From assembly GCA_965205505.1 (NCBI GenBank), contig CBDBHB010000007.1:288001-352000 (forward strand): a stretch of DNA of 64,000 bases, given 5' to 3'. Positions 30,613 through 48,598 of the stretch are shown piece by piece. The translations under genes and the position numbers were made by a program. The DNA comes from Acidobacteriota bacterium (GTDB lineage Bacteria; Acidobacteriota; UBA890; WLXD01). Each line of letters starts with the position of its first letter. The stretch's first letter is position 1. Under the pieces are notes generated by a model that saw nothing but the letters and a program-made list of their open reading frames with translations, did no database searches and was not told the DNA's origin.

Positions 30613-30817
30613 GCTCTCTGTCCCGGCACATCATCGGCGGCTAGCCGCTCGGATCGCCGAGCCTGTCTCCGTTGAAACCGCCCATCCCGCCGAGTATACA
30701 GGTGCCATCGTAGTCCCCACGGAAAGGAGGAAGCATGAGAGCCACGAGGCGAATCTTCGTGGGAATCGCCCTGTCGACGGCCGTCGGCGCAGCGGCGCCC
30801 CGCTACAGGAGACTCCG

Positions 30818-31421
30818 ATGACTAGAAGGATCTCGTTCCGAAGCGCCGCAACCGTGGCCTTCGTGCTGTTGCTCGGCGTGGCACCGGGAGCCGCCGATGA
30901 CGCATTAGTCACAGTCAACAAGCAGATCACGATCGTGCACGAGGCAGGCGACGGCGCCAAGGGAAGCGATGCCGCCATCGAGTTCGACGACATCGACGTC
31001 CAGGTCGAGCATGGCGACTGGCAGGCGAGAACGGATCTGAACGACAACAAGAACGCGACGTTCTGCCTCCGCTACGTCGCCGGTACTCTTGCCTACAGTT
31101 CGGCCCTGCAGGTCGCGTGGACGGGCGTGACCATCAATGGGCAGCTCGTCAGCAATCAAGGCAAATGGCAAGGAAGTCAAGCTCATCAACTCGTTCAAGC
31201 TCAAGGCGGTGCGGGGCGATACTGATCGCGTGTGCAAACCTGTTGCGCTCAGCAAGATGCGCGATGTGATCCGCGTCGTGTTGCGCCACAAGAGCGTGAA
31301 GAAAAACAAGGACGTCGACGGCATCTATTTCTGCCTCTTCGAGCTCTTCAGGTCGGTGAACTCAAGATCCGCCGAGCGCCGCACGGCGCTACCGTTCGCG
31401 GCACCAGCGCCGCGGGGATAA
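30818..31421 (+). pseudogene. Secreted hypothetical protein, apparently frameshifted near 31150
   Basis: AGGAG RBS and signal peptide. The frame with GC-typical codon use switches at about 31150 to the 31137..31421 frame (AIKANGKEVKLINSF...). Confidence 0.5.
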
Positions 31422-33158: not shown

Positions 33159-34241
33159 TCAGCGGCAGCAACGCTGCGCCGGGTCGTCGGGCGAGGTGAA
33201 CTCCTCCGAGGCGAACACCAGCCGGATCCAGCGCTTGTCATTATCCATCGTGGCTTCCAGATCGACGCGCACCACGCGTCCGCCCGGCTCTACATACGCC
33301 TGGTCGATTCCATAGCCGACATCGAGCTCCCACGCGTGCATCGTCCGCGGCCCGACCTCCACATCAGTGCTGGGCCCGAGCTTGAGCTTCCAGGTGTCGA
33401 AGTAGCGGTCGCGATTGGCGAAGTTGTCGCGCTCTCGCGCCATCCAATTCCCTACGCCTACGGGTCGGAATGGCGACTCAGGGATCCCGGCAGGCATGAA
33501 GAACATGAACTCGCGCTCGACCTTCTTGGCGTCGCCGGCGGGATCGATGTGCTCGAACAGCGCCGGCAGGGCGATGCTCAGCAACCCCGGGTTGGCGAAC
33601 GCCGGATCTGTCTCGACGCATATCCTGCGCCCACTCCCCAGACACGCCAGCGCCGATGGCATCCAGGCGTACAGGCCCCGCGGCTTGTCGAGATCCATGT
33701 TCCGGTAGCCGGGAATGCTGACCTTGAAATCCCAGTCGCGGGTGCCAATTCTGAGGTCCTTGCGGAATCGCTTGTCCTCTTCGTTGTAGGTGAAGACAAC
33801 GTGGCGGCGACTGTCGATGGCCAGGTTCTCGCCACGTTGAGCGAAGCGCTGTTCGAACTCCACGCGCACCGGAAATCCGTCCAGCGTGACCTGAAGGTGA
33901 CCTTCCACCTGCACGCTCATGAGCTGCTGCGACGGCCGCAAGGCGCCTGGAATCATTTCGAGGCGCTCGTGCCCGAAGCTGAATTCAGCGAGCTTGATGT
34001 CGCCCTGCTCCACGAGCCCGTCGAACACGATCCACCACTCGGCCACCTCGCCGCCTGCCAGGGCGTCGGGGGGGCCGAGCACATAGCGACGCTCCTCGCC
34101 GGCCCTGAAACCGAAGGCCGAGTCCGTTCGCGGGGCCTGGGGCCGCGCCGAGCCGGCACTGGCGGCGAGGAAAATGATCGCTAGGGCGCCTGCGGTAGCG
34201 GGTAACAGCAAGGACCGTGGGATGACATGGCCGGTACGCAT
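33159..34241 (-). CDS. Hypothetical secreted protein
   Basis: Long ORF with signal peptide and coding-like composition; no recognised motif. Confidence 0.6.
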   Translation of the reverse strand: MRTGHVIPRSLLLPATAGALAIIFLAASAGSARPQAPRTDSAFGFRAGEERRYVLGPPDALAGGEVAEWWIVFDGLVEQGDIKLAEFSFGHERLEMIPGALRPSQQLMSVQVEGHLQVTLDGFPVRVEFEQRFAQRGENLAIDSRRHVVFTYNEEDKRFRKDLRIGTRDWDFKVSIPGYRNMDLDKPRGLYAWMPSALACLGSGRRICVETDPAFANPGLLSIALPALFEHIDPAGDAKKVEREFMFFMPAGIPESPFRPVGVGNWMARERDNFANRDRYFDTWKLKLGPSTDVEVGPRTMHAWELDVGYGIDQAYVEPGGRVVRVDLEATMDNDKRWIRLVFASEEFTSPDDPAQRCCR

Positions 34242-34526
34242 GGCTCCGATACTATCAACGAGACCGAGCCGGCGGCGACGACCGCCGGGGTCGTCATGGA
34301 ATGTGACTTACCCATGGAAGCTCTCGCCGATTGTTGCCAGCAAGAAGCTTCGCGTAGCCTCGCGAAGCGCCGCCGGGTCGCCCGCTGCGACGGATGCAAC
34401 AGGCTCGTGCTGTCCTACGGCGACCGCGCCGACTACGAGCGCACCATCGCGGAGCTGACCGACAACGGCGTGGAGTTTGAGGTCGGGTCGAGCGGCAAGC
34501 TCCTCATCATTGCCTACCAGCGTTGA
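34227..34526 (+). CDS. Small Cys-rich hypothetical protein (CC...CxxC)
   Basis: LADCCQQEA..VARCDGCNRLVL; start may be ATG 34296 or 34314. Confidence 0.55.
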   Translation: MAGTHGSDTINETEPAATTAGVVMECDLPMEALADCCQQEASRSLAKRRRVARCDGCNRLVLSYGDRADYERTIAELTDNGVEFEVGSSGKLLIIAYQR

Positions 34527-34654
34527 CGCGATACGCCCGTCATGGGTAGGCGTCGTACCGCCTGGTGCTCGGTGCTCCTGACCGCCCGGCTTGTGGGCGT
34601 CCTGCTGCTCGGTCATCTGGACGGCAGCACGCCAGCGCAATCTGGCGCCATCAA

Positions 34655-37600
34655 TCAGGCCGAACGCGCCTTGCGAAGGTGCTCTCGAATCGCCTCGACA
34701 AACCGTGGCACGGTATCCCAGACATCACCGACAATCGGATGCACGAGGGGTGTCTTGCGCTGCTCGTTGAGCTTCATCAGCGGTGCATCAGGGTCAACGT
34801 TGAACGACAAGATTACCGCTCGGTCGCCGATGTAGTCGACGTGCTGCGGCGCGCCGGATACCGCCAGGGCAATGATCAGCTTCGGGTTCACCGATACACC
34901 GGTTTGCCCGATCTGGCGATCGGCCGGAAGCAACTCGAGGTCCTGTGTGACCTTTCGCGTCGCCCCGATCATCACGTTGCGCAGGCCCATCTCATCAACG
35001 AGCAGCTGCCGCAGCGGCTCGGCGAGCTCATCGATGCCCGCTCGACCGCCGGCGCCGTAGCCGAAGTCGATGATGATCTCGGCGTCCTGCAGGGTGTCCT
35101 GGTCGCCCGCCAGACTCGCCAGGAATCGGGCCAGCGGATCGTGGCCGGCGTCGTACTCCAAATCGGGCGACCATTTGTAGACTTGGGGTTCCTGCTCCCG
35201 TTCGGAGGCTCTGCGTCCGCCAGTAAGATCGAGCTCCACCGTTGTCCCCAAAGTGAGGACACGGAGGCCGCTCTCGAGCGGCAGCTCGGCCTCCGCACGA
35301 GCTGCGCCTCCATAGATTCGCGTGGCGACGCGGGCGTGTCCGCCGCCATTCGAGATCGACTCGACGTTGTGCCAGCTCCAGCAACGACCGGCCTCGGTGT
35401 TCGCAACGCCGCCGGCCACGAAGCGGGCGAACAGCTCATTTGCCCAGGTTGCCGCAAGCAACCATCGGAGCTCACCGCGGTACTTGGCCCAGAACTCTTC
35501 GAACCACTCGAGATGGCCATGGGCGCTGAAGCCAGCCGCTCCGGCCATCGCTACGATGTACGCCCGACGCGGTCGCACGGCGGCCAGCACGGAGCCTGCC
35601 ACGACCTCCGCGGAAACCTGATCGGTATCGACGGGCACGACCACATCGAGCAACATGCCAACGCCGTCGGCAAGATCGCGAGCAAGACGGAGGTCGGAGT
35701 TGGCGCTTGCGGGGAGCTCGTCGCCGACCGGCGCCAAGACGAACAAACAGCTCCCCGCCTCGTCGTCGCTGGGCTGCTCACGCAGCGACAGCATCCGACC
35801 TTCGTAGGCACTGGCAGGGTCGGTCGCCGCAGCTCCGACCCCGGCTACATCGAGCAGCACACCAACCGCATCCTCCGGCGAGTCGACGCGTAAATCGCGT
35901 CCGTTGCTGGCCGCCACCGCTCGTGCACGATGACGAACACGTACGGTGGCTCGATCCCCCACCAGGTCCGCGGCCGACAGACGCTCGATCTCGGCGGTCG
36001 CAGCGTTCAACCAGGCGCTGAGATCATAGTCGGCTGCTTCGCCGAGACGCGGGAGGGTTGCGACCACACATGGGATCTGAACCGATAGCTCGCGGCCTTC
36101 CCATGAGGCAGCGGCTATCTTCAGCCTCGTGGCGGCACCATCGCCCCAGCGCAGGCTCTCTACTCCGCCATAGACCTTGCTGCCCAGCGCCACGGCCAGG
36201 TAGCTGGACACCACCCCTTGGCCGGTATCTGCGGCGCTCGCGCCGCAGACCACCACGTCGGCAGGTCGACGATTCAATGCGGCGGCGACCACACGTGCCA
36301 CGTAGTCCCCGTCGTGTCGCACCGAGCCAACGCCGTTGGAGGCAGATGAATCGAGATGTACGGCATGATCGGCGCCAAGTGCGAGTGCCGCACGGACGAC
36401 ACTGGCGCCATCGACCCCCGCCAACGTGTAGACGCTGACCTTTATGCGTTGAGGATCGCGTTTCTTGAGCGCGAGTGCCGCCAGTAGCGCGGTCTCATCT
36501 GCCGGATTAGTGAGGCGGAGCGGCTCGGCGAACTCACCATCGGCGAGCCGTGGTCGCGGCGCCGTCGCCGGCACCGGCTTGAGCAAGACCGCGATCTCGA
36601 TCTCGCGGGCGAGATCGGGCTGTTGTCGCTGCTCGATCAGATCGTCGGGCACGAGGCCCCAGCCCTCGGTCGGAGCTCCAGTCTCCTCCAAAGACAAGAA
36701 TCCCAGCTGCGTCTCCGGCGAGTACCGCCCCTCCACGAGATACTCGAGGGCGATCGCGCAGCGTCGCTCTAGCGCCTCGATGCGGGCCAAAGCGCGCTGT
36801 ACGAACAGCCGCGAGGCGCGCTCGAGGCGCGCCCGGTATTCGGCTGGGACTTGGCGCCGTGCGTTCCACTCGAGTCGGTAGAGCACTGCGTCTATCACCT
36901 TGGTCATCCCGGCGACCTCGGCCAAGCGGAAGAAGCACGGTTGCAGCCCGACGTTCGCCCAGACCAGCTGGCCGAAGCTCGCCACCGCACCCTCGAGGTG
37001 GTGGAGCAAACGCTGTCTGGCTCCACCGAGCGCCGCAACCAGCTCCGGATAGGCGAGCTCGTGGCCCTCGGGATCCCCGGCACCACGTTGCCACTCCGGC
37101 AGCACGCGCTGGACGAGGTCCTTCAGCAGCAGAAAGCGCTGCACCTCGTTGGTGCCCTCGTAGATGTTCAGCACCCGGGCGTCGCGCCGCGTCTTCTCGA
37201 CGCGGTGCAGCCAGGTCTGGCCCTCGAGCCCGCGCGCCCGCTCCATCCAGTCGATGCAGTCGTGCTCCGACTCGGTGCCGTAGTACTTGCCGATCGCCGA
37301 CTCCATGCGCACCGAGTCAGTGCACTTGTTGTCGAGCAGCCCGATCATCTCGTAGGTGACCGACGCCGTCCCGACGAGCTCTTCGGCAACACGCCCCATC
37401 CAATATCGCTCCAGCGGCCTCGCCGGGGCGCGCGGCGCATACTCGAAGCCGGGGGCAACGTCACCGCGCAGATAGGGAATCGCATCGGCGGCGAGCTCCG
37501 CGATCGTCGAATGGGTCGTCACCGCCAACCCCGCACGCCCGGTGTTCAAGGTTTCGAGCGCGTTGACCTGACCACGACCGCGGAAGCCGATAATCGCCTC

Positions 37601-40600
37601 GTGCGGCACACGGACGTTGTTGAGCGACAGCTCGTTGGTGGGCGAGCCACGCTGCCCCAGCTTCTCCTCATCGGCTCCCACGACGAGCCCTTCGGCGTGC
37701 CGGTCGACCATGAACCCGGTAACGCCCTCCGGCTCGGTGCGTGCGTACAGCGCCATGCAATGACAGAAGCGCCCGTTGGTAATCCACATCTTGGCGCCGT
37801 TGAGCACCCAGTACTCGTAGAAAGAGTTGCCGGCGGCGTCGGTTCGCAGCAGGCCGATGTCGATGAACTGAACCTTGCGACCACCGTGCATGTAGAAGCG
37901 CGTTCGCTCCGGCGCATCCTGGTCGTAGTCATACTCGGAATGATCGATGAGCGCCGGCTCGGCATCGTCTGCGAAGCGATAGAGCAACCGGCGTTCGTCG
38001 TAGTCGTGTTCCACCCGATCGGCGTCGAGCAAATAGCGTCGCTCGAGCTCGTTGTCCTGGTCGAGCCAGAACCACAGCACTCCGTCGTCGTCGCGGTGCA
38101 CGCGTCGCCGCGCGGCGCGCGCCATGGTTTTCACGCCTCCGGAATCGGACCCGGCAGTAGGCTCAGTAAGCGCGAACGCCGAGATGTAGCCGGCAGAGAT
38201 CGTCTTCAGGAAGAGCTCGTGCGCGCGCTGCCGACGCGGGTACTCCGCGAGGCGCTCCTCGACGGCACCGAGGACGTCATCGATGAGCTCGCGCGCCTGG
38301 CGCAGCTGCGCGCCGAAGCTCTCGAGATCGCGCTGCTGGCCGGCCCGTGTCGCCGCCTGGAACGCCCGCAAGAAACCGCCACCGAGGTACTTCAACACCA
38401 TCGACTCGGCGACGCGCTTCTTGACCAGCGAGCCGATCTCGGCGGTTGCCGCGGCAAGCGCATCGGTGTTCGGCCGTCTCAGCATCGCCAGCACGCGGTC
38501 GATGCCGTCACGGATGTCGCCGAGCACCTCGGGATGCTGGCGCACGCGCTCGAGCTCGGCGCGGGCGCGCGGCAAATCCTGGTACAGGCCGATGAGCGCC
38601 GGCGTCGTACCGATGCTCGTGTTGCCCATGATCGCCAGCGACAACGCCGCATCGCCGTACCGGCCGATGAGCATCGAGAGGATGTAGTACTCGGCCTTCA
38701 GGGCTCCCTCACCGCCGAGCTGTTGGGCAATCGGCATGCGCATGAAGCCCCGCCTGACCATGTAGTCGAGGTCCTCGTCGGGAATCATGTGGAGCTTCTC
38801 AAGATAACGTCCGTACGGCAGCCCATCGAATCTCGGCGCCTCGAAACGCTCACGGAGCTCGGTCTCTAGCTGCCTCCGATAACGCGCCAGCCCCGGGTCG
38901 TGGGCCAGTATCTCGGGCACGCAGCGACGCGACCCAGGGTCGAAGCCGTTGCGAAGCCACTCACCAGATTCATGCGGCTGATCGGCGGTGTAGACGCTCT
39001 CGTAGGGCTCGGAGTCCGGAATCGACGCCGCTGCGAAGTCGCCATTCTCGAGCAACTCGTCGCCGGCGATGAGCGTCGCCGGCGCGAGACCGGCCGCGTC
39101 GATCAATGCCGGAATCTCGGCATTGAGCCGATCGACAACCAACCGCGTCGCCTCGACCATCGCCTCGGTCGGTATGCCGGCGTCAATCCGCCGCATCGAC
39201 CGTACCAGCAAGCTCTTGGCGGCGAGCACCTCGATCACGATGTTGCCGGCAGCGTATGCGGTCAGATCATCGTCGGCACTGCCAAGGCCGCCCGCCCATT
39301 CCTCGGTCTGCTGACATGCAGCCTGGTAGCGTCGTGCCGCCTCGCCAAGCAAGGCATGCTCCGCGGCGCGTGCCGCCCATCGTTGCTCGTCGTCACCGCA
39401 CGGGATCAGGTCGCAGCCCGATCGGGCGGCGGCAAGCCGGCGCCGCCCGACCTGCACGCACAACGCATCGTCGTGGCCGAGCAAAAATCGAAACGGCGCA
39501 CTGTCGCGGTAGTACTTGGCGATGTCGTCATCTTCCGAAAAGGCGGTGCCCCCGAAGATCTGACCGGTGTTGTAGCTGAACGAGCGATCGCCCGGGCCGA
39601 AGGCCTGGCTGGCCAGCACCTTGCTGACCGCCTGCCCGGTCCATTGATCGCCGCCGCCCGGATTGGCGAGCGCCATCGACTCGAGCACGTAGCGGTGCAC
39701 CTCCATCTCAGCCAGCATCTGCTTGACAGCGCCGAACTTGGCCACCGTGTCTCGGCCGGCCTCGTCCTCGAACGTTCCCGGGAACTGCACGCGCCCGGCG
39801 GCGTGCTCGCGGGCACGCTGCAGCAGGTACCTTCCAGATCCGCGAACCGTCGCGAGGTAGCCGGGGAGCGCCACGCCGAGCACCGCCGCCCAAGGCTCTC
39901 CGGCCGCCGGCGCCTCGAGCACTACCTCGTCGACTACTCCCGAAAGGTCGACGCGCCGCGCCGCAGGCACCGTGATGCAGTCGCCGCGCAGGCGCCGGAT
40001 CCGCGCGCCGATCAGACCCACGCTGCCGACGTCCTCGATCACCAGTCGCGGGTCATCGGCATCGATGAGGAAGCCGTCGCTGCCGACGACCACGAGATAG
40101 CGTTGCGCCAGCGCGGTGGGAACGAAGTCGGCGCACACGTCGATCTCGACACCCCCGCCTTGCAGGCGGCGCGCGGCGCGCTGACCACCATGGATGGTCG
40201 CGGCAACCACGCGTGCCGCCTCCAGCTCGGTTTGCGGAGCACCGGCCAGCGCCAACAGGTCGACCGCGAGCAGATGCGACGACGCCATCAGCGCCAGCGC
40301 CGGGTCGGTTGCCGCGAGCTCTTCGAGCACTACGTCCCGAAGCCCGTAGCCGTCCGTTTGCGGCGCCGCGGCGGCAATCTGGTTCCGCAGCCAATCCTCC
40401 TGCTTGTCCGACATCGGTTCGCCGCGCTCCAGAGCACGCACTGCATGGTTGTCGAACCAGCGCTCGCAGCCCTCGCGCACCTCTCCGCGCCAGGCCTCGA
40501 AGTCACGCGGCTCCGCCTCCCGGCGCCGCCACTCGACCGCCTCGAGCTGCTGCTCGACGCACAGGTCGTCGCTCACGCCGACATCGGTCTCAGGCGGCGC

Positions 40601-43339
40601 GGCAGCGGCGTTGCAGACTGCCAAGATGGCGATGAAATGATGGTCCTCGAGCTGCCGGGCGAGCACATCGGCCCAGAAGAACCTGTGTGCCTGGGCATGC
40701 TGTTGCATCTGCTCGAGACGCTCCGCCGCGTCGTCCCAGACGGGTGTGAGCAACTTTGTTGCGGCATTGCTGCCCGAGTCGCTCGTCACCGCTTCCCAGG
40801 TCTGGCGGGCATCGACAAAGGCATCGCGAGCAGCCACAAGGAGGGCGCGGAGATGGCCGCGACGCCCCTCTTCCAAGGCCAGCGGAGAACGCGCCAGATC
40901 GGCACGATAGCCACGCAGGGCGGCGCGCGTGCGCTCCAGCCGAGCGCGCGTGGCTGCGTGGGATGGGCCCGGCAGCGCGCTCGCATCGGCATCGCGAATG
41001 GTATCCAGTAGCTCCGGCAGGAATCCCGGTCGTGAACCCAGACGCGGTTGTGGCTCGGGCCGGTCGGCGAGGTAGGCGTGGAGCTCTTGCTGCGCGGGTG
41101 TATAGGTCTGATAGATGAGCCGCTGCTGGGTGGCGCGGCTCCAGTGCACATCGCCCGTGGCGCGCCAACAAGTCTCGCATTTGATGCAGTTTTCGTAGTT
41201 GACCACCACCCCCGGCTGGCCCGCCGGGTTGCGCCGCACCTCGTAGACCTTGGCCGGACAGATGTTCCACAGCGCCGACGACGACAGGTTGTTCCGGTCG
41301 GCGAGCGGCGTCGGCCACATCACCTTGATGTGGGAGTGGTGGCCGGCCTGATACGTGATCGTGCCCAGCTTCGCCTCGTAGGTCGTGGTGATGGCAACGT
41401 GATCGTCATCGAGGCGGATGCGCTCGTGGTTGTCGGCCAGCAACCGGTTGGTGAGCCGCTGGCCGAAGCGGCTCGGCTCCCAACGCAATACCGAGCGCTG
41501 GAACCACTCGGCGGCCGCCTGCGTCAAGCTGGTTGCGATGACGGCAGCACCGCCGCCCGCGACCACGGCGACATCCCAGATCGACAAGCAACCGGCGAGA
41601 TGCCGTGCCGCGGCCCGGAGCTTGTCGGCCACGTCGGTATCGTCGTTGGTGTAGACCTCGCTGAAAGCGCTCGCCAGCGCGCCGCCGAAACGTCGCCAGT
41701 ACCAACGGAACAGCCACGGAGTCGTGCCGGACTGCTCCCCACCCGCCATCACGCGATACAGAGCCCGCAGCCGCGCTCCGTCGTGCGCCCGTGCCTCCGC
41801 CACGCCGGCCCCGGCTGCCGCTGCGACTGCAGGGTCGGAGCTCTCGGCCAGGCCAACGTGCGTACCCGATCGGCGCGGCAGGAAAGCCCCGACGGTGTTC
41901 CATAGCACCCGCAGCAGGTTGGCGGGCGTGGCCGCAGCGCGAACGAGCATGCCCAAGCCGACTGCGTGGGCCAGGGCGCGGCTGTCGGCCACGATCGAGC
42001 CGTTGCCATCCCTGACGACGCGACGCACGAGCCGCACCACGCTCCAGTAGCGCTTCCAGGAACCCAGCTCCGGACGCGACATGATGTAGGCGCTGTTGTT
42101 CAACAAATCGAGCTGCTTCTCGAAGAAGAACTGCGTGCGCTCGATGTAAGCCGGCCAGTCGTGCAGGTGCTGCACGCTGCGGTAGTAGTGACTCGACTTC
42201 ACCGCCTTGAGGTACGTGTGGCGCAATGCCCGCTCGGTAAACGGCGATTGCGTCGGATCGCCACTACGTCCGAGGCCACCAGAATCGGCGGCGATCTGAC
42301 GCACCGCAGCGGCAAAGTGCAGCCCCATCGCCGTCGCCGGCCCGGTAAAGTTCGGATAGGGAAAGTCGAGGCCGATACCGCTCGCGGCGCCGCCAATGGC
42401 CAGCCCCTCGTCGACCAGCCGCGGAATTTCCTTCAGGCCGCCGCCGCGGATGATCTTGGCGCCGTACGAGGTGAGCTCGCCGCCGTCGATCATGCGGGCG
42501 ATCTCCGGTAGGCCTTTGAACCACTCCATGAGGATGTTGTGGTCGCCTTCGAAGTGCTGCCGGAGGTTGTCGAGCGGTAGAACGAACCCGAGCGACAAGC
42601 TGTCGCGGTTGGTGTAGACGAAGCCGCCCATGTTGAGCCGCGCCGTGCGCCCCTTGCGCGAGGCGTTGCGGAGCAGCATCTCGAAGGCCACGCCTTCGCC
42701 CGGCGCCAAGCCAAAGCGCTCCTCGAGCACGTCCTCCGGGAGCGAGATCACCTCTTTCACGCCCTGCAGGAAGTGCGGTGCTCCCTCGGCTCGATCACGC
42801 TCCGAAACCTGCTCGTAGCCTTCCTGGGTGACCAAATGCGACGCGTCGCCCTCCGCGAGAAACACCACATCGGCATACGCCGGACCGCGCTCGGTGTGAA
42901 CACCGATGACGCGACCTCGATGCCGGATGAGGCTCTGAACAGTAGTCTCGCAGGCGAGCATGACGCCGTGCTGGCGCGCTACCTCGGCCAGATACCGATC
43001 GTAGACGGGCCGCAGCACCGTGTAACAAGAGCGGAAAACGTCGGGTGACAGAAGGCTGGCGCCGAGTAGGCTATGGCCGTTGTACAGGTAGGCGCCGCGC
43101 TCCACGAGTCGGCGCTCGTACGGCGCCGCCGCGACGATGTCGCGGCCGAAGGCATCCGGATGTTCCAGGTTCTCCGAAAAGTAGACGGCACCCGACCAGT
43201 TCTCGGCACCGGGGAAGATCCCCGCTTCGCAGACCAGCACCGCGATTCCGGCCCTGCCGAGGGCCATCGCGGCGATGATACCCGCCGGGCCGGCCCCAAC
43301 GACGATCACATCGAAGCGGTCGGGGGCCAACGTAGTCAT
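34655..43339 (-). CDS. Giant multidomain flavoprotein: FixC + FixX(4Fe-4S) + inactive-like ACAD + ACAD + EtfB + EtfA
   Basis: GAGPAG/GVKEVI/GGFVYTNRDSLSLG (FixC); CPAKVY..CIKCETC (FixX); GQIFGG..YYRD..FLLG (ACAD1); FALTEPTAGSD, NGAKMWITNG, IYEGTNEVQR (ACAD2); KPVP, NPAD, ALALGAD, DTGQG (EtfB); GATR, QIGQTG, SGAPQH (EtfA). Single uninterrupted ORF. Confidence 0.9.
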   Translation of the reverse strand: MTTLAPDRFDVIVVGAGPAGIIAAMALGRAGIAVLVCEAGIFPGAENWSGAVYFSENLEHPDAFGRDIVAAAPYERRLVERGAYLYNGHSLLGASLLSPDVFRSCYTVLRPVYDRYLAEVARQHGVMLACETTVQSLIRHRGRVIGVHTERGPAYADVVFLAEGDASHLVTQEGYEQVSERDRAEGAPHFLQGVKEVISLPEDVLEERFGLAPGEGVAFEMLLRNASRKGRTARLNMGGFVYTNRDSLSLGFVLPLDNLRQHFEGDHNILMEWFKGLPEIARMIDGGELTSYGAKIIRGGGLKEIPRLVDEGLAIGGAASGIGLDFPYPNFTGPATAMGLHFAAAVRQIAADSGGLGRSGDPTQSPFTERALRHTYLKAVKSSHYYRSVQHLHDWPAYIERTQFFFEKQLDLLNNSAYIMSRPELGSWKRYWSVVRLVRRVVRDGNGSIVADSRALAHAVGLGMLVRAAATPANLLRVLWNTVGAFLPRRSGTHVGLAESSDPAVAAAAGAGVAEARAHDGARLRALYRVMAGGEQSGTTPWLFRWYWRRFGGALASAFSEVYTNDDTDVADKLRAAARHLAGCLSIWDVAVVAGGGAAVIATSLTQAAAEWFQRSVLRWEPSRFGQRLTNRLLADNHERIRLDDDHVAITTTYEAKLGTITYQAGHHSHIKVMWPTPLADRNNLSSSALWNICPAKVYEVRRNPAGQPGVVVNYENCIKCETCWRATGDVHWSRATQQRLIYQTYTPAQQELHAYLADRPEPQPRLGSRPGFLPELLDTIRDADASALPGPSHAATRARLERTRAALRGYRADLARSPLALEEGRRGHLRALLVAARDAFVDARQTWEAVTSDSGSNAATKLLTPVWDDAAERLEQMQQHAQAHRFFWADVLARQLEDHHFIAILAVCNAAAAPPETDVGVSDDLCVEQQLEAVEWRRREAEPRDFEAWRGEVREGCERWFDNHAVRALERGEPMSDKQEDWLRNQIAAAAPQTDGYGLRDVVLEELAATDPALALMASSHLLAVDLLALAGAPQTELEAARVVAATIHGGQRAARRLQGGGVEIDVCADFVPTALAQRYLVVVGSDGFLIDADDPRLVIEDVGSVGLIGARIRRLRGDCITVPAARRVDLSGVVDEVVLEAPAAGEPWAAVLGVALPGYLATVRGSGRYLLQRAREHAAGRVQFPGTFEDEAGRDTVAKFGAVKQMLAEMEVHRYVLESMALANPGGGDQWTGQAVSKVLASQAFGPGDRSFSYNTGQIFGGTAFSEDDDIAKYYRDSAPFRFLLGHDDALCVQVGRRRLAAARSGCDLIPCGDDEQRWAARAAEHALLGEAARRYQAACQQTEEWAGGLGSADDDLTAYAAGNIVIEVLAAKSLLVRSMRRIDAGIPTEAMVEATRLVVDRLNAEIPALIDAAGLAPATLIAGDELLENGDFAAASIPDSEPYESVYTADQPHESGEWLRNGFDPGSRRCVPEILAHDPGLARYRRQLETELRERFEAPRFDGLPYGRYLEKLHMIPDEDLDYMVRRGFMRMPIAQQLGGEGALKAEYYILSMLIGRYGDAALSLAIMGNTSIGTTPALIGLYQDLPRARAELERVRQHPEVLGDIRDGIDRVLAMLRRPNTDALAAATAEIGSLVKKRVAESMVLKYLGGGFLRAFQAATRAGQQRDLESFGAQLRQARELIDDVLGAVEERLAEYPRRQRAHELFLKTISAGYISAFALTEPTAGSDSGGVKTMARAARRRVHRDDDGVLWFWLDQDNELERRYLLDADRVEHDYDERRLLYRFADDAEPALIDHSEYDYDQDAPERTRFYMHGGRKVQFIDIGLLRTDAAGNSFYEYWVLNGAKMWITNGRFCHCMALYARTEPEGVTGFMVDRHAEGLVVGADEEKLGQRGSPTNELSLNNVRVPHEAIIGFRGRGQVNALETLNTGRAGLAVTTHSTIAELAADAIPYLRGDVAPGFEYAPRAPARPLERYWMGRVAEELVGTASVTYEMIGLLDNKCTDSVRMESAIGKYYGTESEHDCIDWMERARGLEGQTWLHRVEKTRRDARVLNIYEGTNEVQRFLLLKDLVQRVLPEWQRGAGDPEGHELAYPELVAALGGARQRLLHHLEGAVASFGQLVWANVGLQPCFFRLAEVAGMTKVIDAVLYRLEWNARRQVPAEYRARLERASRLFVQRALARIEALERRCAIALEYLVEGRYSPETQLGFLSLEETGAPTEGWGLVPDDLIEQRQQPDLAREIEIAVLLKPVPATAPRPRLADGEFAEPLRLTNPADETALLAALALKKRDPQRIKVSVYTLAGVDGASVVRAALALGADHAVHLDSSASNGVGSVRHDGDYVARVVAAALNRRPADVVVCGASAADTGQGVVSSYLAVALGSKVYGGVESLRWGDGAATRLKIAAASWEGRELSVQIPCVVATLPRLGEAADYDLSAWLNAATAEIERLSAADLVGDRATVRVRHRARAVAASNGRDLRVDSPEDAVGVLLDVAGVGAAATDPASAYEGRMLSLREQPSDDEAGSCLFVLAPVGDELPASANSDLRLARDLADGVGMLLDVVVPVDTDQVSAEVVAGSVLAAVRPRRAYIVAMAGAAGFSAHGHLEWFEEFWAKYRGELRWLLAATWANELFARFVAGGVANTEAGRCWSWHNVESISNGGGHARVATRIYGGAARAEAELPLESGLRVLTLGTTVELDLTGGRRASEREQEPQVYKWSPDLEYDAGHDPLARFLASLAGDQDTLQDAEIIIDFGYGAGGRAGIDELAEPLRQLLVDEMGLRNVMIGATRKVTQDLELLPADRQIGQTGVSVNPKLIIALAVSGAPQHVDYIGDRAVILSFNVDPDAPLMKLNEQRKTPLVHPIVGDVWDTVPRFVEAIREHLRKARSA

Positions 43340-43478
43340 GACGTATAAGAGGAAGAACAGATGAAAAGAAAAACAGATGAAATAAAGACGTACGGATATG
43401 AATCCATGGTATTCGAGAGAGCAGAAGTCGACTAGCAGGCCCGACTAGTGGCCTGTTGCAGGCCACAAGAGGGGAGCT

Positions 43479-45005
43479 ATGTACCGTCATCGTGTGATCG
43501 GCCGCGCACTCCTGCTGTTGATGGCGACCACGGTCGCCGACGCCACGACCGGCCAGTCGGAGCCGGGCCGACAGCTGCTCGTCGGTGCCACGATCGTCGA
43601 TGGCACAGGTAGCACCGCGTACCGCGGCGAGGTGTTGCTCGAGGGCGACCGTATTGCCGCCGTCGGCACAAACGGATCGCTGCGCCCATCGGACTCCGAG
43701 GCGACGCTGACGGTGATCGATCTCGCTGGCCTCATCCTGGCGCCAGGGTTCATCGACATCCACAACCACTCCACCCAAAGTTTGCGAGACGACCCGCTGG
43801 CGACGACGCAGATCGCGCAGGGGGTAACGACGATCGTGGTGGGCGCCGACGGCTCCTCCCCGTGGCCCATCGGCGAGTATCTCGACGACATCGACGCGCT
43901 TTCGACAACGCTGAATGTCGGCACGCTCGTGGGTCACGGCACCGTTCGACGCGACGTGCTGGGCGACGATTACCGACGTGTCGCCAGCACCACCGAAGTC
44001 AGGGAGATGGCGCTCCGGGTGCGGCAGGGGATGCTGGAGGGTGCCTTCGGCCTTTCGAGCGGCCTCGAATACGATCCTGGCTACTACTCGACCACCGAAG
44101 AGCTGATCGAGCTGGCGAGCGTCGCCGGTGGGCTCGGCGGTTTCTACATGTCGCACGTTCGCGACGAGGAGGACGGCCTTCTCGACGCGATCGACGAGGC
44201 CCTGCGCATCGGCGTCGAGGGCAAGCTGCCGGTACAAATCTCGCACATCAAGACCGGCAACGCCGCGGTGTGGGGCCAGGCGCGTGCGGTTCTGGGGCGG
44301 CTCGCAGCGGCTCGCGTCGCGGGGCTCGACGTGACCGCCGATCAGTACCCCTACACCGCCTGGCAGTCGGGACTCGGGATCGTCGTGCCCTCACGACGCT
44401 TCGACGATCCGGTCGCGGTGGCGGAGGGCCTCGCGGCCGTCGGCGGCGGTTCGCGTTTGCAGATCGTCGGCTACGACGCGGACCCCGCGGCTCACGGCAT
44501 GAGGCTGAGCGAGGTCGCCGCCCGCGCCGGCAAGAGCGAGGTCGAGATGTACATGGAAATGATGGCCAACGGCGGCTCGGGCATCATCGGCCACACCATG
44601 AGCCAGGAGGATGTCGACACCTTCATGACCTCGCCGCTGGTGATGACCGCCAGCGATGGCGGCGTTGGCAGCAGCCATCCGCGCGGCGCAGGTGCCTTTG
44701 CTCGTATTCTCGGCCACTACCTGCGCGAGCGCGAGATGCTATCGCTCGAGCGTGCGGTGCAACGGGCCACCAGGATGCCGGCGCAGCGCCTTGGCCTCGA
44801 CGATCGCGGCGTCATTCGACCAGGAGCCATGGCCGACCTGGTGGCATTCGACGCCGCCACCATCACGGACCACAGCACCTTTACCGATCCTCTCCGGTCA
44901 GCCACGGGCGTGCACGCAACCTGGGTGTCCGGGCAAAGGGTATGGGCCGAAGGACACCCGACCGGCGTACGCCCCGGACGAGGACTGCGGCACCCGGCTC
45001 AATAA
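43479..45005 (+). CDS. N-acyl-D-amino-acid deacylase (D-aminoacylase) family amidohydrolase
   Basis: APGFIDIHNH, GLSSGLEY, SHVRDE, ISHIK, DQYPYTA, SDG, HPRGAGAF, ADLVAFD. Confidence 0.9.
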   Translation: MYRHRVIGRALLLLMATTVADATTGQSEPGRQLLVGATIVDGTGSTAYRGEVLLEGDRIAAVGTNGSLRPSDSEATLTVIDLAGLILAPGFIDIHNHSTQSLRDDPLATTQIAQGVTTIVVGADGSSPWPIGEYLDDIDALSTTLNVGTLVGHGTVRRDVLGDDYRRVASTTEVREMALRVRQGMLEGAFGLSSGLEYDPGYYSTTEELIELASVAGGLGGFYMSHVRDEEDGLLDAIDEALRIGVEGKLPVQISHIKTGNAAVWGQARAVLGRLAAARVAGLDVTADQYPYTAWQSGLGIVVPSRRFDDPVAVAEGLAAVGGGSRLQIVGYDADPAAHGMRLSEVAARAGKSEVEMYMEMMANGGSGIIGHTMSQEDVDTFMTSPLVMTASDGGVGSSHPRGAGAFARILGHYLREREMLSLERAVQRATRMPAQRLGLDDRGVIRPGAMADLVAFDAATITDHSTFTDPLRSATGVHATWVSGQRVWAEGHPTGVRPGRGLRHPAQ

Positions 45006-45013
45006 CGCACCTG

Positions 45014-45373
45014 CTACGCGATCTCCGCGCGCACCGCGCGAGTGAGCCCGTCGAACACCAACTGCCAAGAATGCTCCACCAACTCGACAATCAACGCGCG
45101 CGGCACCGTACCGTCGAGCAGCACCGTGTTCCAGTGTCTCTTACTCATGTGATGGCCGGGCACGACGCCGTCGGGGTAGCGCTCTCGTAGCTCCATGGCG
45201 CGCTCCGGGTCGCACTTCAGGTTCACCTGCGGCGGCATCCGCTCGAGCGCGATGAGCGCGAACATCTTCCTGCCGACCCGGTAAACGGCCGTGTCGGGGC
45301 CGAACGGCATGTCGTCGGTAGCGCCGCGTTGGGCCAGCAGCAGCTCGTGTATCTCGTCCAGTTCCATGCTCAC
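45014..45373 (-). CDS. MmcQ/YjbR family DNA-binding protein
   Basis: PFGPD..VYRVGRKMFA, NLKCDPE, PGHHMSKRHWNTV. Confidence 0.9.
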   Translation of the reverse strand: MSMELDEIHELLLAQRGATDDMPFGPDTAVYRVGRKMFALIALERMPPQVNLKCDPERAMELRERYPDGVVPGHHMSKRHWNTVLLDGTVPRALIVELVEHSWQLVFDGLTRAVRAEIA

Positions 45374-45565
45374 AGCCTGGTGCGATTATCTGCCCATGTC
45401 CAGAGGTGAGCCGCGCACAACGCGCCAAACGACGCTGCTCGGATCGTCGCGGTGGCGCACACTAGCACCCAACGCTGTGGCCCGAGATCGCTCGACATGC
45501 GCATGGTGTAGTCTCGCTTCGCTACGCGCGCCCGCGCCGTTTCGCCGCATCGGAGACCATCCGCG

Positions 45566-46315
45566 ATGTCCGCAAACAAGCGCCTCGGCCTCATCGGGTT
45601 CGGACAGTTCGGTCGGTACGCCGTACCGTTCCTGACGCCCCACTTCGAGATCGTCGTGTACGACACTGCCGACATCGCTGCGAGCGCCAGCGAGCTCGGC
45701 GTTCGCAGCGTCATGCTCGAGGAAGCGGCAAGCTGCGAGATCGTCGTCCTGGCAGTGCCGATGCAGGCGTTGCAAGCGACCCTTCGACAGATGGCCGGAA
45801 GCGTCTGCGCCGGGGCGCTCATCGTCGATGTTTGCTCGGTCAAGGCAGCACCGGTGCGTTGGATGCGCGACGCGCTGCCCGAGCATGTTGAGATCATCGG
45901 CACGCACCCGATGTTCGGACCCCACAGCGGCGGCGACTTGCTCGAGGGCCAGCAGATCGTCGTCTGCCCGGAGCGCACGACGCGACTGGATCGCGTACAG
46001 ACGTTCCTGGAGAGCCTCGGGCTGAGGGTGATCGTAGCGGATCCCGATCGCCACGATCGTGAGTGTGCCCATACCCAGGCACTCGCCCAGTACCTCGGCC
46101 GGGCACTGCGACGTGTCGAGGGCCGCCAGCTCGACATCCGCACGCCGGCCGCGACCCTGCTGCGCGAGGTCGAGCGCATCGTCGAGGCCGACTCGTGGGA
46201 GCTGTTCGCCGCTATCGAGACAGTGAACCCGTATGCGGCCGAGATGCGTCGGGAGCTTCGTGAGCGGCTCGAAGAGCTCGAAAGGCGCTTGTCGGCCGAG
46301 CCAACGTGCGAATGA
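45566..46315 (+). CDS. Prephenate/arogenate dehydrogenase family protein
   Basis: GLIGFGQFG, DVCSVK, THPMFGP, HDRECA.TQAL. Confidence 0.85.
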   Translation: MSANKRLGLIGFGQFGRYAVPFLTPHFEIVVYDTADIAASASELGVRSVMLEEAASCEIVVLAVPMQALQATLRQMAGSVCAGALIVDVCSVKAAPVRWMRDALPEHVEIIGTHPMFGPHSGGDLLEGQQIVVCPERTTRLDRVQTFLESLGLRVIVADPDRHDRECAHTQALAQYLGRALRRVEGRQLDIRTPAATLLREVERIVEADSWELFAAIETVNPYAAEMRRELRERLEELERRLSAEPTCE

Positions 46316-47130
46316 ACAAGGGCCTTCGCTGCGAGGACCACGGCCCGGTGCGCTGCTACCGGCTGACCCGGTATCTGGCCGGCCGACGCATCATGGGCGT
46401 GGTGGTCTATGTAGTCGATGGGTTGATGATCGATACTGGCCCGCGCAGCTGCCGAAGGGCTTTCGAGGAGATTCTCCAGCGGGAGAAGGTGCGCCGCATC
46501 GTCCTCACCCATCACCACGAAGACCACGTTGGCAATGCGGCCGTCGCAGCGCAACACACCGAAACCAAGCCGAGCATTCATCCGCTCGGTATGGAGCTGG
46601 TCCGTACTGTGCCGTCGTTGCCCTTCTATCGGCGCGTCGTCTGGGGATCGCCAGAGTCAGTCGACGTCGCGCCATTAGGTGAAGAGCTGCACACCGATAA
46701 CTACACGTTCCGCGTGCTGCATACGCCGGGCCACGCAACCGATCACGTCGCGCTGCACGAGCCCGAGCAAGAGTGGTTGTTCTGCGGCGATCTGTACATC
46801 ACCGAGCGTCCGCGCCGGGCGTTCGATTTCGAGAACATCGGCGAGCTGGTCGCCTCGCTGCGCCACGTACTGGCCCTCCCCGACTGCGAACTGTTCTGCC
46901 AACACAACGGGCGCTTTGCCAGCCACCAGCACCGGCTAGGCCGGCGGCTCGACAACCTGCTGGGGCTGCGGGAACGAGCTGTGGTGTGCTTCGAGGAGGG
47001 TCGATCGATACGCGAGATCGCCGTCGCACTGGGCGTTCGCGATGGCTTCAACCGCTTTCTGAGCAGCAACGAGTGGACCGGGCGAAATCTGGTAATGGGC
47101 CTTCTCCGTGATGCCGGCAAGATCGACTGA
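46306..47130 (+). CDS. MBL-fold metallo-hydrolase
   Basis: IDTG, THHHEDHVG, TPGHATDH, FCGD. Confidence 0.9.
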   Translation: MRMNKGLRCEDHGPVRCYRLTRYLAGRRIMGVVVYVVDGLMIDTGPRSCRRAFEEILQREKVRRIVLTHHHEDHVGNAAVAAQHTETKPSIHPLGMELVRTVPSLPFYRRVVWGSPESVDVAPLGEELHTDNYTFRVLHTPGHATDHVALHEPEQEWLFCGDLYITERPRRAFDFENIGELVASLRHVLALPDCELFCQHNGRFASHQHRLGRRLDNLLGLRERAVVCFEEGRSIREIAVALGVRDGFNRFLSSNEWTGRNLVMGLLRDAGKID

Positions 47131-48289
47131 AGAAGTTGCCGAAGAGATCTCGCTGATCGAGCCGACCGCCATGGCGGCGCTCGTAAGCTGGTACGAAATC
47201 GAAGCGCGCGACCTGCCCTGGCGGCGAACCCGCGACCCGTACCGGATCTTGGTCTCGGAGGTGATGCTCCAGCAGACTCGGGTCGAGACGGTAATCGAAC
47301 GCTACGAGCGCTTCCTGCGCGTCTTCCCCGACCTCGGCAGCCTGGCGGCGGCATCTGAGAACGATGTGCTCGCCGAATGGTCGGGTCTCGGCTACTACCG
47401 TCGAGCACGCAACCTGCACCGGCTGGCGCGTCGGGTCATAGCCGACGGATCAGACCGGCTACCCGAAGATGTGGATGCGCTGCGTGCGCTGCCGGGCATC
47501 GGCGACTACACGGCCGCGGCGGTGGCGTCGATCGCTTTCGATCGTCCGCACCTGTCAATCGATGGCAACGTCGGACGCGTACTGTGCCGAGTGCTGGACG
47601 TCCGTGACGGCCATAATCGCGCCGCCGTCCGGCGCCACATGCGCCGCGCCTGTGCGCCAGCCCTGAGGGCACATGCGCCCGGCGAGGTCAATCAAGCGCT
47701 GATGGAGCTCGGAGCCCGCCTGTGCACCCCGCGGGCGCCGCGCTGTGACGCTTGCCCGCTCGGCGACGCCTGCGTCGCAGCCGCCGAACAGACGCAGGAG
47801 CTCCTCCCGGTTCGCACCCAGCGCAAGGTGCGAGCCGTCGAGGAGGGCGCCGCGGTGATCGAACGTGACGGCCACTTCCTGCTATTGCGCGGCCAGCGGC
47901 CCGGAGCGCTGTCGGACATGTGGGAGTTTCCGACCCTGGACTCGCGTATCGGTGAGCAGATCGTCGCCGAAGCGGCGCCGCCCGCCGATCTCACCGCGAC
48001 CAGTCCTGCGTTGGCGAACGACAACGTCGCCCAGGCACTGCAGCAACACCTGAACGACATCGGGATCCATATCCGTGATCTCGAGCCCATCGGCGAGATT
48101 CGCCACGGCATAACCAATCGCCGCATCCGTTGCCACATCTACCGCCCCGAGACGGTGAGCATCGCGACCGACCACACGGCCCCTGTCGGCGCGCCCGAGC
48201 GCGACTGGTTCACACCCGAGGAGATGGCCAAGATCCCGCTGGGGTCCACCGCCGCCAAGATCCTCCGGCTGCTCGAGGCACGCGCTTGA
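47108..48289 (+). CDS. mutY: A/G-specific adenine glycosylase
   Basis: RDLPWR, SEVMLQQT, WSGLGYYRRA, LPGIGDYTA HhH, DGNV, NQALMELGA, CTPRAPRCDACPLGDAC Fe-S motif, WEFP. Start uncertain. Confidence 0.92.
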   Translation: MMPARSTEEVAEEISLIEPTAMAALVSWYEIEARDLPWRRTRDPYRILVSEVMLQQTRVETVIERYERFLRVFPDLGSLAAASENDVLAEWSGLGYYRRARNLHRLARRVIADGSDRLPEDVDALRALPGIGDYTAAAVASIAFDRPHLSIDGNVGRVLCRVLDVRDGHNRAAVRRHMRRACAPALRAHAPGEVNQALMELGARLCTPRAPRCDACPLGDACVAAAEQTQELLPVRTQRKVRAVEEGAAVIERDGHFLLLRGQRPGALSDMWEFPTLDSRIGEQIVAEAAPPADLTATSPALANDNVAQALQQHLNDIGIHIRDLEPIGEIRHGITNRRIRCHIYRPETVSIATDHTAPVGAPERDWFTPEEMAKIPLGSTAAKILRLLEARA

Positions 48290-48377
48290 GACCCCACCTT
48301 TGCGTCGTGCCCGCGCGATAAGAACCGGCTTGCGGTGGCTGCGCTTGCTCGCTACCGTTGACAGCTGCCTGACTTGT

Positions 48378-48452: not shown

Positions 48453-48457
48453 CCTCC

Positions 48458-48498: not shown

Positions 48499-48598
48499 GC
48501 GGCATGACGAATCTATGTCCCCGCGCCACAGTCGCGGAGCGAGCCGCCTGAGCGCCTCCGGTTGACAGCTGTAGTCGCCGTCTATAATCAAGCGCCTC

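Follow-up and report, generated by a model that had tools for sequence, protein, structure and literature searches.

A single open reading frame joining FixC, FixX, acyl-CoA dehydrogenase and electron-transfer flavoprotein modules: a putative one-chain acyl-CoA:quinone oxidoreductase

Results

One reading frame encodes six modules

We analyzed a 64,000-nucleotide stretch of DNA from an Acidobacteriota bacterium (GenBank assembly GCA_965205505.1, contig CBDBHB010000007.1, positions 288,001 to 352,000 of the forward strand; hereafter the window), and in particular one giant gene on its minus strand. The listing of open reading frames (ORFs) shows that positions 34655..43339 (-) hold one uninterrupted frame, which starts with ATG, encodes 2894 amino acids (aa) and ends with a stop codon at 34655-34657; its translation contains zero internal stops. 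From the N- to the C-terminus, the product consists of a FixC-type flavoprotein, a linker with a hydrophobic helix, a FixX-type four-cysteine cluster, two modules of acyl-CoA dehydrogenase (ACAD) fold, termed here module 1 and module 2, and the two parts of an electron-transfer flavoprotein (ETF), EtfB followed by EtfA. The coordinates of all modules given below lie on the same strand. An initial annotation, made by a reader of the letters alone, had proposed a single ORF with these modules at this position. The single frame was borne out, every module was found within ~100 bases of where that annotation had placed it, and a Pfam scan recovered the families in the proposed N- to C-terminal order.

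Sequence nearly identical to the giant-gene region is present in 20 public runs from ten studies. For the comparison of contigs we used four runs from four other studies and omitted the best-matching run as a possible source of the assembly. In 4 of 4 runs contigs covered all 30 bins of the ORF and spanned all module junctions, with zero frameshifts. One contig ran across 37775-43600, reaching from FixC into the beginning of module 2; it carried 14 substitutions and was free of gaps. Another independent contig ran across 34400-37305. The sole indel in the contigs of the four runs was an in-frame insertion of three bases (GCC) in one run, and the 29 variant sites comprised 12 synonymous and 17 non-synonymous changes with no stops. 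Because contigs of four other studies cover the ORF with only substitutions and one in-frame insertion, an assembly-chimera origin is excluded for the 2894-aa ORF; the independent assemblies show neither the stops nor the frameshifts between modules against which the initial annotation had cautioned. Chance is likewise excluded, because six ordered families lie in one frame and the same order of motifs recurs in 50 of 61 related ORFs (see below). No RNA run was listed among the 24 runs checked for the giant gene. A promoter and terminator scan gave 5 terminator-like sites where 3.6 were expected, including one located ~290 bases downstream of the giant-gene stop; the same scan found no promoter-like site and was uninformative in this respect.

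The fusion recurs in several phyla

Searching by protein sequence gave 208 relatives at E<=0.001; many of them are full-length and share 35-81% identity with the window protein, and the order of the modules is kept down to ~31-35% identity. In an alignment of 40 sequences every module is present in all members; a shorter class (~2480 aa, 8 of 40) is without residues 1021-1107 and has shorter loops. Within a species-representative collection, 151 loci encode a relative, and all figures given per locus refer to the best 80 of these 151. According to their titles the 80 loci come from Acidobacteriota (12), Gemmatimonadota (14), Planctomycetota (19), Nitrospirota (8), Verrucomicrobiota (19, one Lentisphaeraceae included), Armatimonadetes (1) and 'Alcaligenaceae' (2), with 5 unnamed, and all 80 are labelled as metagenome-assembled genomes. 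An ORF of at least 2400 aa was present at 61 of the 80 loci, and six diagnostic motifs followed one another in the same order in 50 of these 61. Thus many genomes carry the fusion, as full-length homologs with the same order of domains. In the window's own phylum the gene was detected in 23 of 401 genomes, a number that is a lower bound since it comes from a stricter first-pass search. Two families of one order held it in 10 of 10 and 12 of 15 genomes, and 0 of 375 genomes elsewhere did.

A FastTree phylogeny was built from 62 rows, namely the 61 long ORFs and the window protein, without the 19 loci whose ORFs were shorter. Verrucomicrobiota (11), Acidobacteriota (9), Gemmatimonadota (9) and Nitrospirota (7) each fell on one side of a fully supported branch, and the Planctomycetota required five changes on the tree. 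As the clades follow the phyla, the fusion appears to be old and maintained, with some transfer.

Several individual genomes deserve mention. Two loci titled 'uncultured Alcaligenaceae' (L049 and L082), the first of which has a FadB-like neighbour, nest in the Gemmatales clade, a placement that suggests mis-binning or recent transfer. In a genome of the same genus as the window (G069), residues 1-177 are found in a 203-aa frame (C2:2704220-2704750) and residues 165-2893 in a 2805-aa frame (C2:2696139-2704235); this split in the FixC part would reflect a frameshift, an assembly error or a pseudogene. Another genome (G118) encodes two paralogues, at C15:996457-1005159 and C14:524191-532920, with 90% and 55% identity to the window protein, and both have a divergent amidohydrolase upstream.

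The N-terminal part holds FixC-type and FixX-type modules

Residues 1-445 (42005..43339) form a FixC/EtfC-type flavoprotein with a flavin adenine dinucleotide (FAD) fold, a putative quinone reductase. Pfam places FAD-oxidoreductase families at residues 9-178 of the whole protein. Two NCBIfam models match residues 6-407, NF007450 (PRK10015) at 1.4e-49 (169 bits, equivalog cut-off 466) and NF007542 (FixC) at 6.4e-43 (147 bits, equivalog cut-off 610). The best sequence match of the whole protein in the Protein Data Bank (PDB) is 7koe_C, the FixC chain of the T. maritima EtfABCX entry (1.5e-31, residues 8-416). Likewise, residues 1-415 of the stand-alone FixC encoded by the same genome align with residues 4-444 of the fused protein at 32% identity (E 5e-41). 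The similarity to FixC therefore runs from end to end and includes the N-terminal GxGxxG FAD fold.

The linker that follows (residues 446-685, 41285..42004; ~240 residues) holds a hydrophobic helix, belongs to no Pfam family and is less conserved than the modules on either side of it; a scan of residues 401-700 found no Pfam family at E<=1. The hydrophobic stretch comprises ~20 residues (about 583-607 or 585-607, the latter at 41519..41587), with a Kyte-Doolittle mean of 1.83 over 19 residues. It is hydrophobic, as judged by eye, in 39 of 40 aligned relatives. Furthermore, 50 of 61 related ORFs have a segment scoring at least 1.6 in the interval from FixC to FixX, and 5 more have one scoring 1.3-1.6. 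This stretch is a probable membrane anchor, as its hydropathy suggests.

Residues 686-745 (41105..41284) correspond to a [4Fe-4S] domain of the FixX/ETF-QO type, recognized by four cysteines and PF05187. The motif CPAxxY...CxxCxxC, which reads C-P-A-x-V-Y at its start here, supplies C694, C718, C721 and C724; these are invariant in 40 of 40 aligned sequences, are the only invariant cysteines of the family, and recur as a motif in 60 of 61 related ORFs. PF05187 (Fer4_ETF_QO) scores 23.8 bits at residues 689-724 against a cut-off of 24 in the scan of the whole protein, and 29.4 bits, above the cut-off, on the FixX-like stretch in a six-frame search of the genome. A Protein Atlas search with residues 418-940 gave FixX-like leads only, at 0.89, under the 0.9 level. 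The four cysteines would fit one [4Fe-4S] cluster. Beside them, at window position 41191, contigs of two of the runs carry a T>G change that turns Asn717 into His. Asn717 adjoins a cluster cysteine and is invariant in the 40-sequence alignment; the depth of these contigs is low and the variant may be an error. The domain is followed by a spacer (residues 746-934, 40538..41104), which has a conserved motif, HA...RFFWA..GRQL.DHH, and belongs to no Pfam family.

Two ACAD-fold modules show complementary losses

Module 1 (residues 935-1345, 39305..40537) is a non-catalytic domain of ACAD fold, as delimited by AlphaFold2 (AF2) and structure search. Sequence comparison alone reveals an ACAD only in its C-terminal domain: Pfam detects PF00441 at residues 1169-1300 (26.3 bits, cut-off 22.4) and nothing of the preceding domains, and the alignment of the module with VLCAD is confined to the C-terminal domain of the latter (1e-6). 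The fold search extends the resemblance to the entire module. Modelled alone, module 1 adopts a complete three-domain ACAD fold (pLDDT 90.5, pTM 0.91), and Foldseek matches it to the ACAD fold at E 2.4e-12. Its VIA-wide structural matches include 7xp7_A (Z 31.8, 322 residues aligned, rmsd 3.1) and 4kto_A (Z 31.1, more than 320 residues aligned); 4x28_C (ChsE4-ChsE5; Z 29.7) and 6wy8_A (Z 29.4) are tied with ordinary ACADs.

In module 1 the F-E-G-T-N-D of VLCAD is replaced by F-L-L-G-H-D-D. The column of the catalytic glutamate, defined here by the VLCAD residue so that the base position of the IVD/LCAD type lies outside the comparison, contains Glu in 0 of 40 sequences; TE..GSD and WITN, the flavin motifs, are likewise present in 0 of 40. 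What the module keeps invariant are R1183-x-Q1185-F1186 and Q1260..G1263-G1264, which we take, from the structure of MCAD, to be the residues that reach the neighbour's FAD across the ACAD dimer. A profile comparison of module 1 with module 2 by hhalign was weak (E 0.012, probability 3.5%). Module 1 is probably a pseudo-enzyme, and the protein would probably have one active site, not two.

A search with module 1 against 1.84 billion representatives returned 111 clusters at E<=0.001, among them 29 of at least 2300 aa and 7 of 1800-2300 aa, hence at least 36 long proteins of the fusion family. None of the 111 is known as an ordinary ACAD, the shortest ones being outside this examination. Matches of middle length mostly begin or end abruptly; we considered them as split or partial natural forms of the fusion and instead read them as fragments, a reading that falls short of proof. 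Module 1 is specific to the fusion family.

A helical bridge (residues 1346-1473, 38921..39304; helices at model positions 382-498, no Pfam family) leads to module 2 (residues 1474-2081, 37097..38920), which is a complete ACAD with insertions by Pfam and by fold. It contains Acyl-CoA_dh_N (PF02771) at residues 1511-1580, Acyl-CoA_dh_M (PF02770) at 1841-1909 and Acyl-CoA_dh_1 (PF00441) at 1921-2072. In the VIA comparison it aligns with the short-chain ACAD 2vig_B over 363 residues (Z 24.4, rmsd 2.2), and 435 chains reach Z>=8. The flavin motifs TE..GSD and W-I-T-N are found in 40 of 40 sequences. So is I-Y-E-G-T-N-E, whose E2061 aligns with the YEG of ACADSB and CarC and is presumably the catalytic base. 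Module 2 is thus a complete ACAD and probably an active one. Its RxQFG is replaced by a variable loop and its QxxGGxG by 'RARGLEGQT'. The two modules have therefore suffered complementary losses: module 1 keeps RxQF and QxxGG without the glutamate, whereas module 2 keeps the glutamate without RxQFG and QxxGG.

A joint AF2 model of both modules (residues 935-2134, 1200 residues, 27-row alignment) reached a pLDDT of 86.1 and a pTM of 0.84, and VLCAD chains align onward to model residue 1200 (3b96, 443 aligned, Z 22.4), within a helical extension after module 2 (residues 2082-2244, 36608..37096) that is delimited by the VLCAD alignment and belongs to no Pfam family. We infer that modules 1 and 2 may share one FAD and one active site per pair. 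Of the two ACAD modules proposed in the initial annotation, the second thus stands as a complete dehydrogenase, and the first does not stand as an enzyme and is a non-catalytic partner of ACAD fold.

The ETF modules keep one of two nucleotide sites

The EtfB-like module (residues 2245-2500, 35840..36607) matches PF01012 at residues 2278-2458 (1.3e-10) and, in a phmmer search of the PDB, 6fah_B (1.5e-8) and 1efp_B (4.1e-6). The EtfA-like module (residues 2501-2894, 34658..35839), made of domain I and of domain II with the electron-transfer FAD (ET-FAD), matches PF00766 (ETF_alpha) at residues 2750-2834 (1.1e-14), 5ol2_A (3.2e-12) and 7koe_B (7.9e-12). These phmmer searches do not separate bifurcating from canonical relatives, both kinds scoring weakly. 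Few stretches of the whole protein are as well conserved as domain II of EtfA. Because R2795, QIGQ[TS]G and SGAPQH vary little or not at all, the ET-FAD site appears to be intact in EtfA.

A loop of EtfB at residues ~2433-2447 (window 35840-36742) reads ADYDLSAWLNAATA in the fused protein and PRYPSLRGIMAAKRK in the free EtfB of the same genome. We take this to be the recognition loop by which ETF docks on dehydrogenases; the free ETFs of the genome have 'PRYPSLRGIM' where the fusion has 'ADYDLSAWLN'.

The second nucleotide site of ETFs binds a bifurcating flavin or a structural adenosine monophosphate (AMP). According to the sections of PMC8958531 available to us, the EtfB zipper reads D-G-D-T-A-Q in 216 bifurcating ETFs (bETFs) and D-D-D-x-N-Q in 449 canonical ones, and an EtfA arginine is Arg in 214 of 216 bETFs and 447 of 449 canonical ETFs; the available text of PMC12630350 gives the signature glycine as invariant in bETFs. 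Among the 61 long ORFs, 0 contained the bETF signature DGD[TS][AG]Q and 0 the canonical AMP-site signature DDDxNQ. The zipper loop of the window protein is A-A-D-T-G-Q-G, with Thr at the position of the glycine. The loop varies in the Planctomycetota members, and eight residues of it are deleted in 8 of 8 members of the short class. The EtfA arginine, which lies in 'ATRIYGG', is Arg in ~4 of 40 sequences, in a column chosen by motif match as the 3-sequence alignment is ambiguous there; that alignment, in which the EtfA of the genome itself is included, cannot be relied on in domain I. The free EtfB loops of the genome match neither textbook type and were of no help in classifying the fused EtfB. 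Since the second flavin/AMP site is not conserved, a bifurcating flavin is unlikely to be conserved in the fused ETF. The 'DTGQ' loop, taken with the PDB matches 5ol2_A, 7koe_B and 6fah_B, makes descent of the module from a Fix-type ETF likely.

The giant gene lies among beta-oxidation genes in Planctomycetota

We clustered 1575 flanking ORFs of the 80 loci and ran Pfam on the representatives. A FadB-like gene lies directly upstream of the giant gene, on the same strand, at 10 of 80 loci, which belong to the Gemmatales group. Six of these FadB-like genes were scanned with Pfam, and 6 of 6 encode both enoyl-CoA hydratase and 3-hydroxyacyl-CoA dehydrogenase domains. An upstream thiolase was present in 4 of 5 Planctomycetota loci examined and an acyl-CoA synthetase in 2. 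Two loci (L078, L064) show acyl-CoA synthetase, thiolase, FadB and then the giant gene, which is a fadD-fadA-fadB order, and two more (L051, L075) show thiolase, FadB and then the giant gene. As the giant gene follows thiolase and FadB, it holds the fadE position of a beta-oxidation cluster in Planctomycetota.

The neighbours differ in other phyla. In Verrucomicrobiia, where representatives only were scanned, a glycerophosphodiester phosphodiesterase gene stands beside the giant gene in 13 loci and a gene for a GlpD-like dehydrogenase in 12. At 4 of 7 acidobacterial loci (L019, L021, L023, L024) a patatin-Omp85 phospholipase gene was found at the giant gene, between it and an ORF of 360 aa. 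This gene is missing from the window, where ~400 bases (34242-34654) separate the giant gene from the 360-aa ORF.

In the window itself, an Amidohydro_3 gene (43479-45005, +) is divergent from the giant gene, the same arrangement being seen at 7 of 7 related acidobacterial loci; strong matches to its hidden Markov model (HMM) occur at 11 of 80 loci, all acidobacterial, with two weak matches otherwise. Downstream of the giant gene lies the 360-aa ORF (33159-34241, -), which encodes a secreted protein that has a signal peptide at its N-terminus and matches no Pfam family. Strong HMM matches to this protein were found downstream of the giant gene at 9 of 80 loci, all acidobacterial by title. In the window its gene is followed by one for a class-V aminotransferase. 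Farther out (22781-31225 and 45370-56113) the flanks encode unrelated families: an MMPL transporter, an M14 peptidase, DUF547, a GT2 glycosyltransferase, a metallo-beta-lactamase fold, a MutY-like HhH-GPD/NUDIX protein, an S15 peptidase, a sulfatase and a MacB/FtsX permease.

Elsewhere in its genome, the window's bacterium encodes FixC+FixX once and EtfB+EtfA twice as free pairs, and 11 further ACAD matches occur. The fusion supplements this conventional ACAD/ETF/FixCX set without replacing it. One free EtfB-EtfA pair (L002, G000:C9:2564398-2567637) adjoins a gene of the MTTB family, which is trimethylamine methyltransferase-like.

Discussion

A proposed electron path within one chain

We propose, with a probability of about 0.7, that the giant gene encodes a membrane-associated single-chain acyl-CoA:quinone oxidoreductase, which would carry out the FadE step of beta-oxidation with an electron chain of its own and without bifurcation. 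The support comes from sequence, models and gene context. A self-contained chain is favored because the FixC FAD fold, the four cysteines, the motifs and glutamate of module 2 and the ET-FAD site are all conserved. The initial annotation had offered two possibilities, an enzyme that by itself passes electrons from acyl-CoA to quinone or one that bifurcates them. The former agrees with the conserved cofactor sites and the fadE-like position of the gene; the latter is at odds with a second flavin/AMP site that is not conserved.

In the proposed sequence of events, module 2 would oxidize the acyl-CoA on its FAD with Glu2061 as the base. The inactive module 1 would pair with it within the chain as a pseudo-dimer and supply the Arg-x-Gln-Phe and Gln..Gly-Gly residues, giving one FAD and one active site per pair of modules, as in CasC and the alpha-beta ACADs of the ChsE type. 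The tethered EtfA head, with its ET-FAD, would then accept electrons one at a time from module 2 and deliver them to the FixX-type [4Fe-4S] cluster, and the cluster would pass them through the FixC FAD to quinone at the membrane, to which the hydrophobic helix would hold the protein. We assume that the quinone used is probably menaquinone in these phyla. Each chain would be expected to contain 3 FAD and one [4Fe-4S] cluster, with no bifurcating flavin.

Several observations weigh against this proposal. The quinone-binding family PF21162 (ETFQO_UQ-bd) matches the fused FixC weakly, at residues 236-297, with 19.1 bits against a cut-off of 27.7, and scores 32.6 bits on the free FixC of the genome. 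For the pairing of module 1 with module 2, the basis is a single AF2 model and its high pTM. The scan of neighbours found no beta-oxidation genes in the window itself, and the two genes that do accompany the fusion there, for the amidohydrolase and the 360-aa protein, were rejected as functional partners and regarded as lineage synteny, being confined to acidobacterial loci. The same genome already has the conventional set, so that the fusion meets no obvious need. An ETF base without a conserved nucleotide site is in itself unusual, and canonical ETFs without AMP are reported as unstable in the available part of PMC8958531. Finally, the FixC, ACAD and EtfA parts have their best PDB sequence matches in subunits of bifurcating complexes (7koe, 6fah, 5ol2), and in acidobacterial members the EtfB loop 'DTGQ' is similar to the T-[A/G]-Q half of the signature of bifurcating ETFs.

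Alternative explanations

An artefact, either an assembly chimera or separate genes read through by sequencing errors, would find an echo in the genome where a frame of its own encodes the first 177 residues, and we regard its chances as negligible: contigs of four other studies cross all junctions without frame-breaking indels, 61 of 80 related loci have an ORF of at least 2400 aa, and the order is kept at low identity. The mechanism could be as proposed and the substrate unusual, such as a bulky side chain of the steroid or hopanoid type or a branched or amino-acid-derived thioester. Tandem inactive and active ACADs are known from the steroid side-chain enzymes CasC and ChsE (PMC8399759, as far as the excerpt goes), and 4x28_C and 6wy8_A stand among the top structural matches of module 1, level there with ordinary ACADs; module 2 has large insertions, and the 11 other ACAD matches of the genome could serve ordinary substrates. 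We nevertheless hold this to be rather unlikely. The fadD-fadA-fadB context in Planctomycetota is a generic fatty-acid set, module 2 is closest in sequence and profile to enzymes of the FadE, SCAD and VLCAD types, and no steroid-degradation genes were found among the scanned neighbours.

The remaining alternatives concern the course of the electrons. The chain might run in reverse, as a quinol-dependent enoyl-CoA reductase that uses enoyl-CoA as an electron sink or serves a reductive or biosynthetic route. Sequence sets no direction, and the acyl-CoA/enoyl-CoA and menaquinone couples are close in potential, so that the chain is reversible in principle. The genes clustered with it are catabolic, however, with thiolase and FadB at 4 of 5 Planctomycetota loci and acyl-CoA synthetase at 2, and two other phyla have lipolytic or glycerophosphodiester genes close by; reversal is accordingly improbable. 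A flavin-based bifurcating or confurcating enzyme like EtfABCX or Bcd-Etf, which would use NADH and ferredoxin besides acyl-CoA and quinone and might thereby pull the slightly uphill step from acyl-CoA to menaquinone, is quite improbable. It would be in keeping with FixC and FixX being partners of bifurcating FixAB/EtfAB, with the best PDB matches (7koe_C, 6fah_C, 5ol2_A, 7koe_B) and with the 'DTGQ' loop. It is opposed by the count of 0 of 61 ORFs with DGD[TS][AG]Q, by Thr at the glycine that the accessible text of PMC12630350 describes as invariant in bETFs, by the deletion of the loop in 8 of 8 short-class members and by the poor conservation of the EtfA arginine that holds the second nucleotide. 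Nor is there a further ferredoxin domain or cysteine cluster beyond the four cysteines, and the gene context is one of ordinary beta-oxidation. A variant of this idea, a non-canonical second redox site in the degenerate interface of EtfB and EtfA domain I that couples acyl-CoA oxidation to menaquinone through an NAD(H)/ferredoxin branch, strikes us as very improbable; if true, such a branch would solve the uphill step from acyl-CoA to menaquinone within one polypeptide. We thus retain the non-bifurcating acyl-CoA:quinone oxidoreductase as the preferred explanation.

Significance

The protein is assembled from known families throughout; the novelty lies in their union and in the degenerations that accompany it. 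The initial annotation knew of no described fusion of all six modules, and this held: we found no paper describing one in the full text of open-access PMC and bioRxiv. Databases give the fusion generic names, 'acyl-CoA dehydrogenase family protein' or 'ETF-quinone oxidoreductase'. The gene occurs commonly in soil and water phyla that are poorly represented in culture (Acidobacteriota, Gemmatimonadota, Planctomycetota, Verrucomicrobiota, Nitrospirota), and recognizing the fusion would improve the metabolic reconstruction of lipid use in them. As a rule the ETF head contacts dehydrogenase and quinone reductase transiently during its shuttling, and a protein of fixed stoichiometry could allow cryo-EM and kinetics of the complete chain. 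The loss of both signatures suggests that a tethered ETF base may do without an otherwise near-universal structural nucleotide. As an engineering part, one gene linking acyl-CoA oxidation with the quinone pool could also be useful.

Comparison with known systems

In mycobacteria, EtfBA and EtfD do the same job, linking many ACADs to the respiratory chain (PMC8593149; PMC13083937; bioRxiv 10.1101/2025.05.14.654035; each as far as its available text goes); they are separate proteins, and EtfD is described as non-homologous to human ETF-QO in the part of PMC8593149 at hand. Bcd-EtfAB and CarCDE (5ol2, 6fah) also represent a stable union of ACAD and ETF, and module 2 counts CarC and Bcd among its best matches. 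Unlike the fusion as we propose it, these complexes are multi-subunit, cytoplasmic, bifurcating and reductive, and contain no quinone reductase.

The pairing of an inactive with an active ACAD unit, as in modules 1 and 2, has precedents in CasC of Rhodococcus jostii RHA1 and in the alpha2beta2 enzymes ChsE1/2 and ChsE4/5 (PDB 4x28). CasC is made up of two ACAD domains in fusion, of which the C-terminal one alone has the catalytic glutamate and the N-terminal one is needed for FAD binding, and ChsE1/2 and ChsE4/5 show the same division of labour, as set out in the excerpt of PMC8399759. Those enzymes differ from the fusion in being free-standing, in acting on steroid side chains and in using a diffusible ETF.

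The closest described case within open-access PMC and bioRxiv is the SaETF of Sulfolobus acidocaldarius, in which EtfB is followed by EtfA in one chain, as in the fusion (PMC12042025). From what the available text of that article states, SaETF is a stand-alone bifurcating ETF with two FADs, and the genes next to it encode its ACAD and FixCX partners. EtfABCX/FixABCX (7koe of T. maritima; FixABCX of A. vinelandii) contains all four of its module types in common with the fusion, and according to the passages of PMC10734219 at hand EtfABCX bifurcates from NADH to quinone and ferredoxin. It is built of four separate subunits without an ACAD, whereas the fusion adds two ACAD-fold modules and is without the bifurcating-flavin signature.

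In function the nearest comparison is the classical chain of ACAD, EtfAB and ETF:quinone oxidoreductase. It comprises the same three functions, would share the inferred order ACAD FAD to ET-FAD to [4Fe-4S] to FAD to quinone, and has the conserved residues of the ET-FAD site in common with the fusion. The fusion differs from it in that the canonical AMP signature DDDxNQ occurs in 0 of 61 of its ORFs, in that its quinone reductase is of the split FixC+FixX type and not a single ETF-QO, and in being one polypeptide. A whole acyl-CoA-to-quinone electron path in one chain is what would set the fusion apart.

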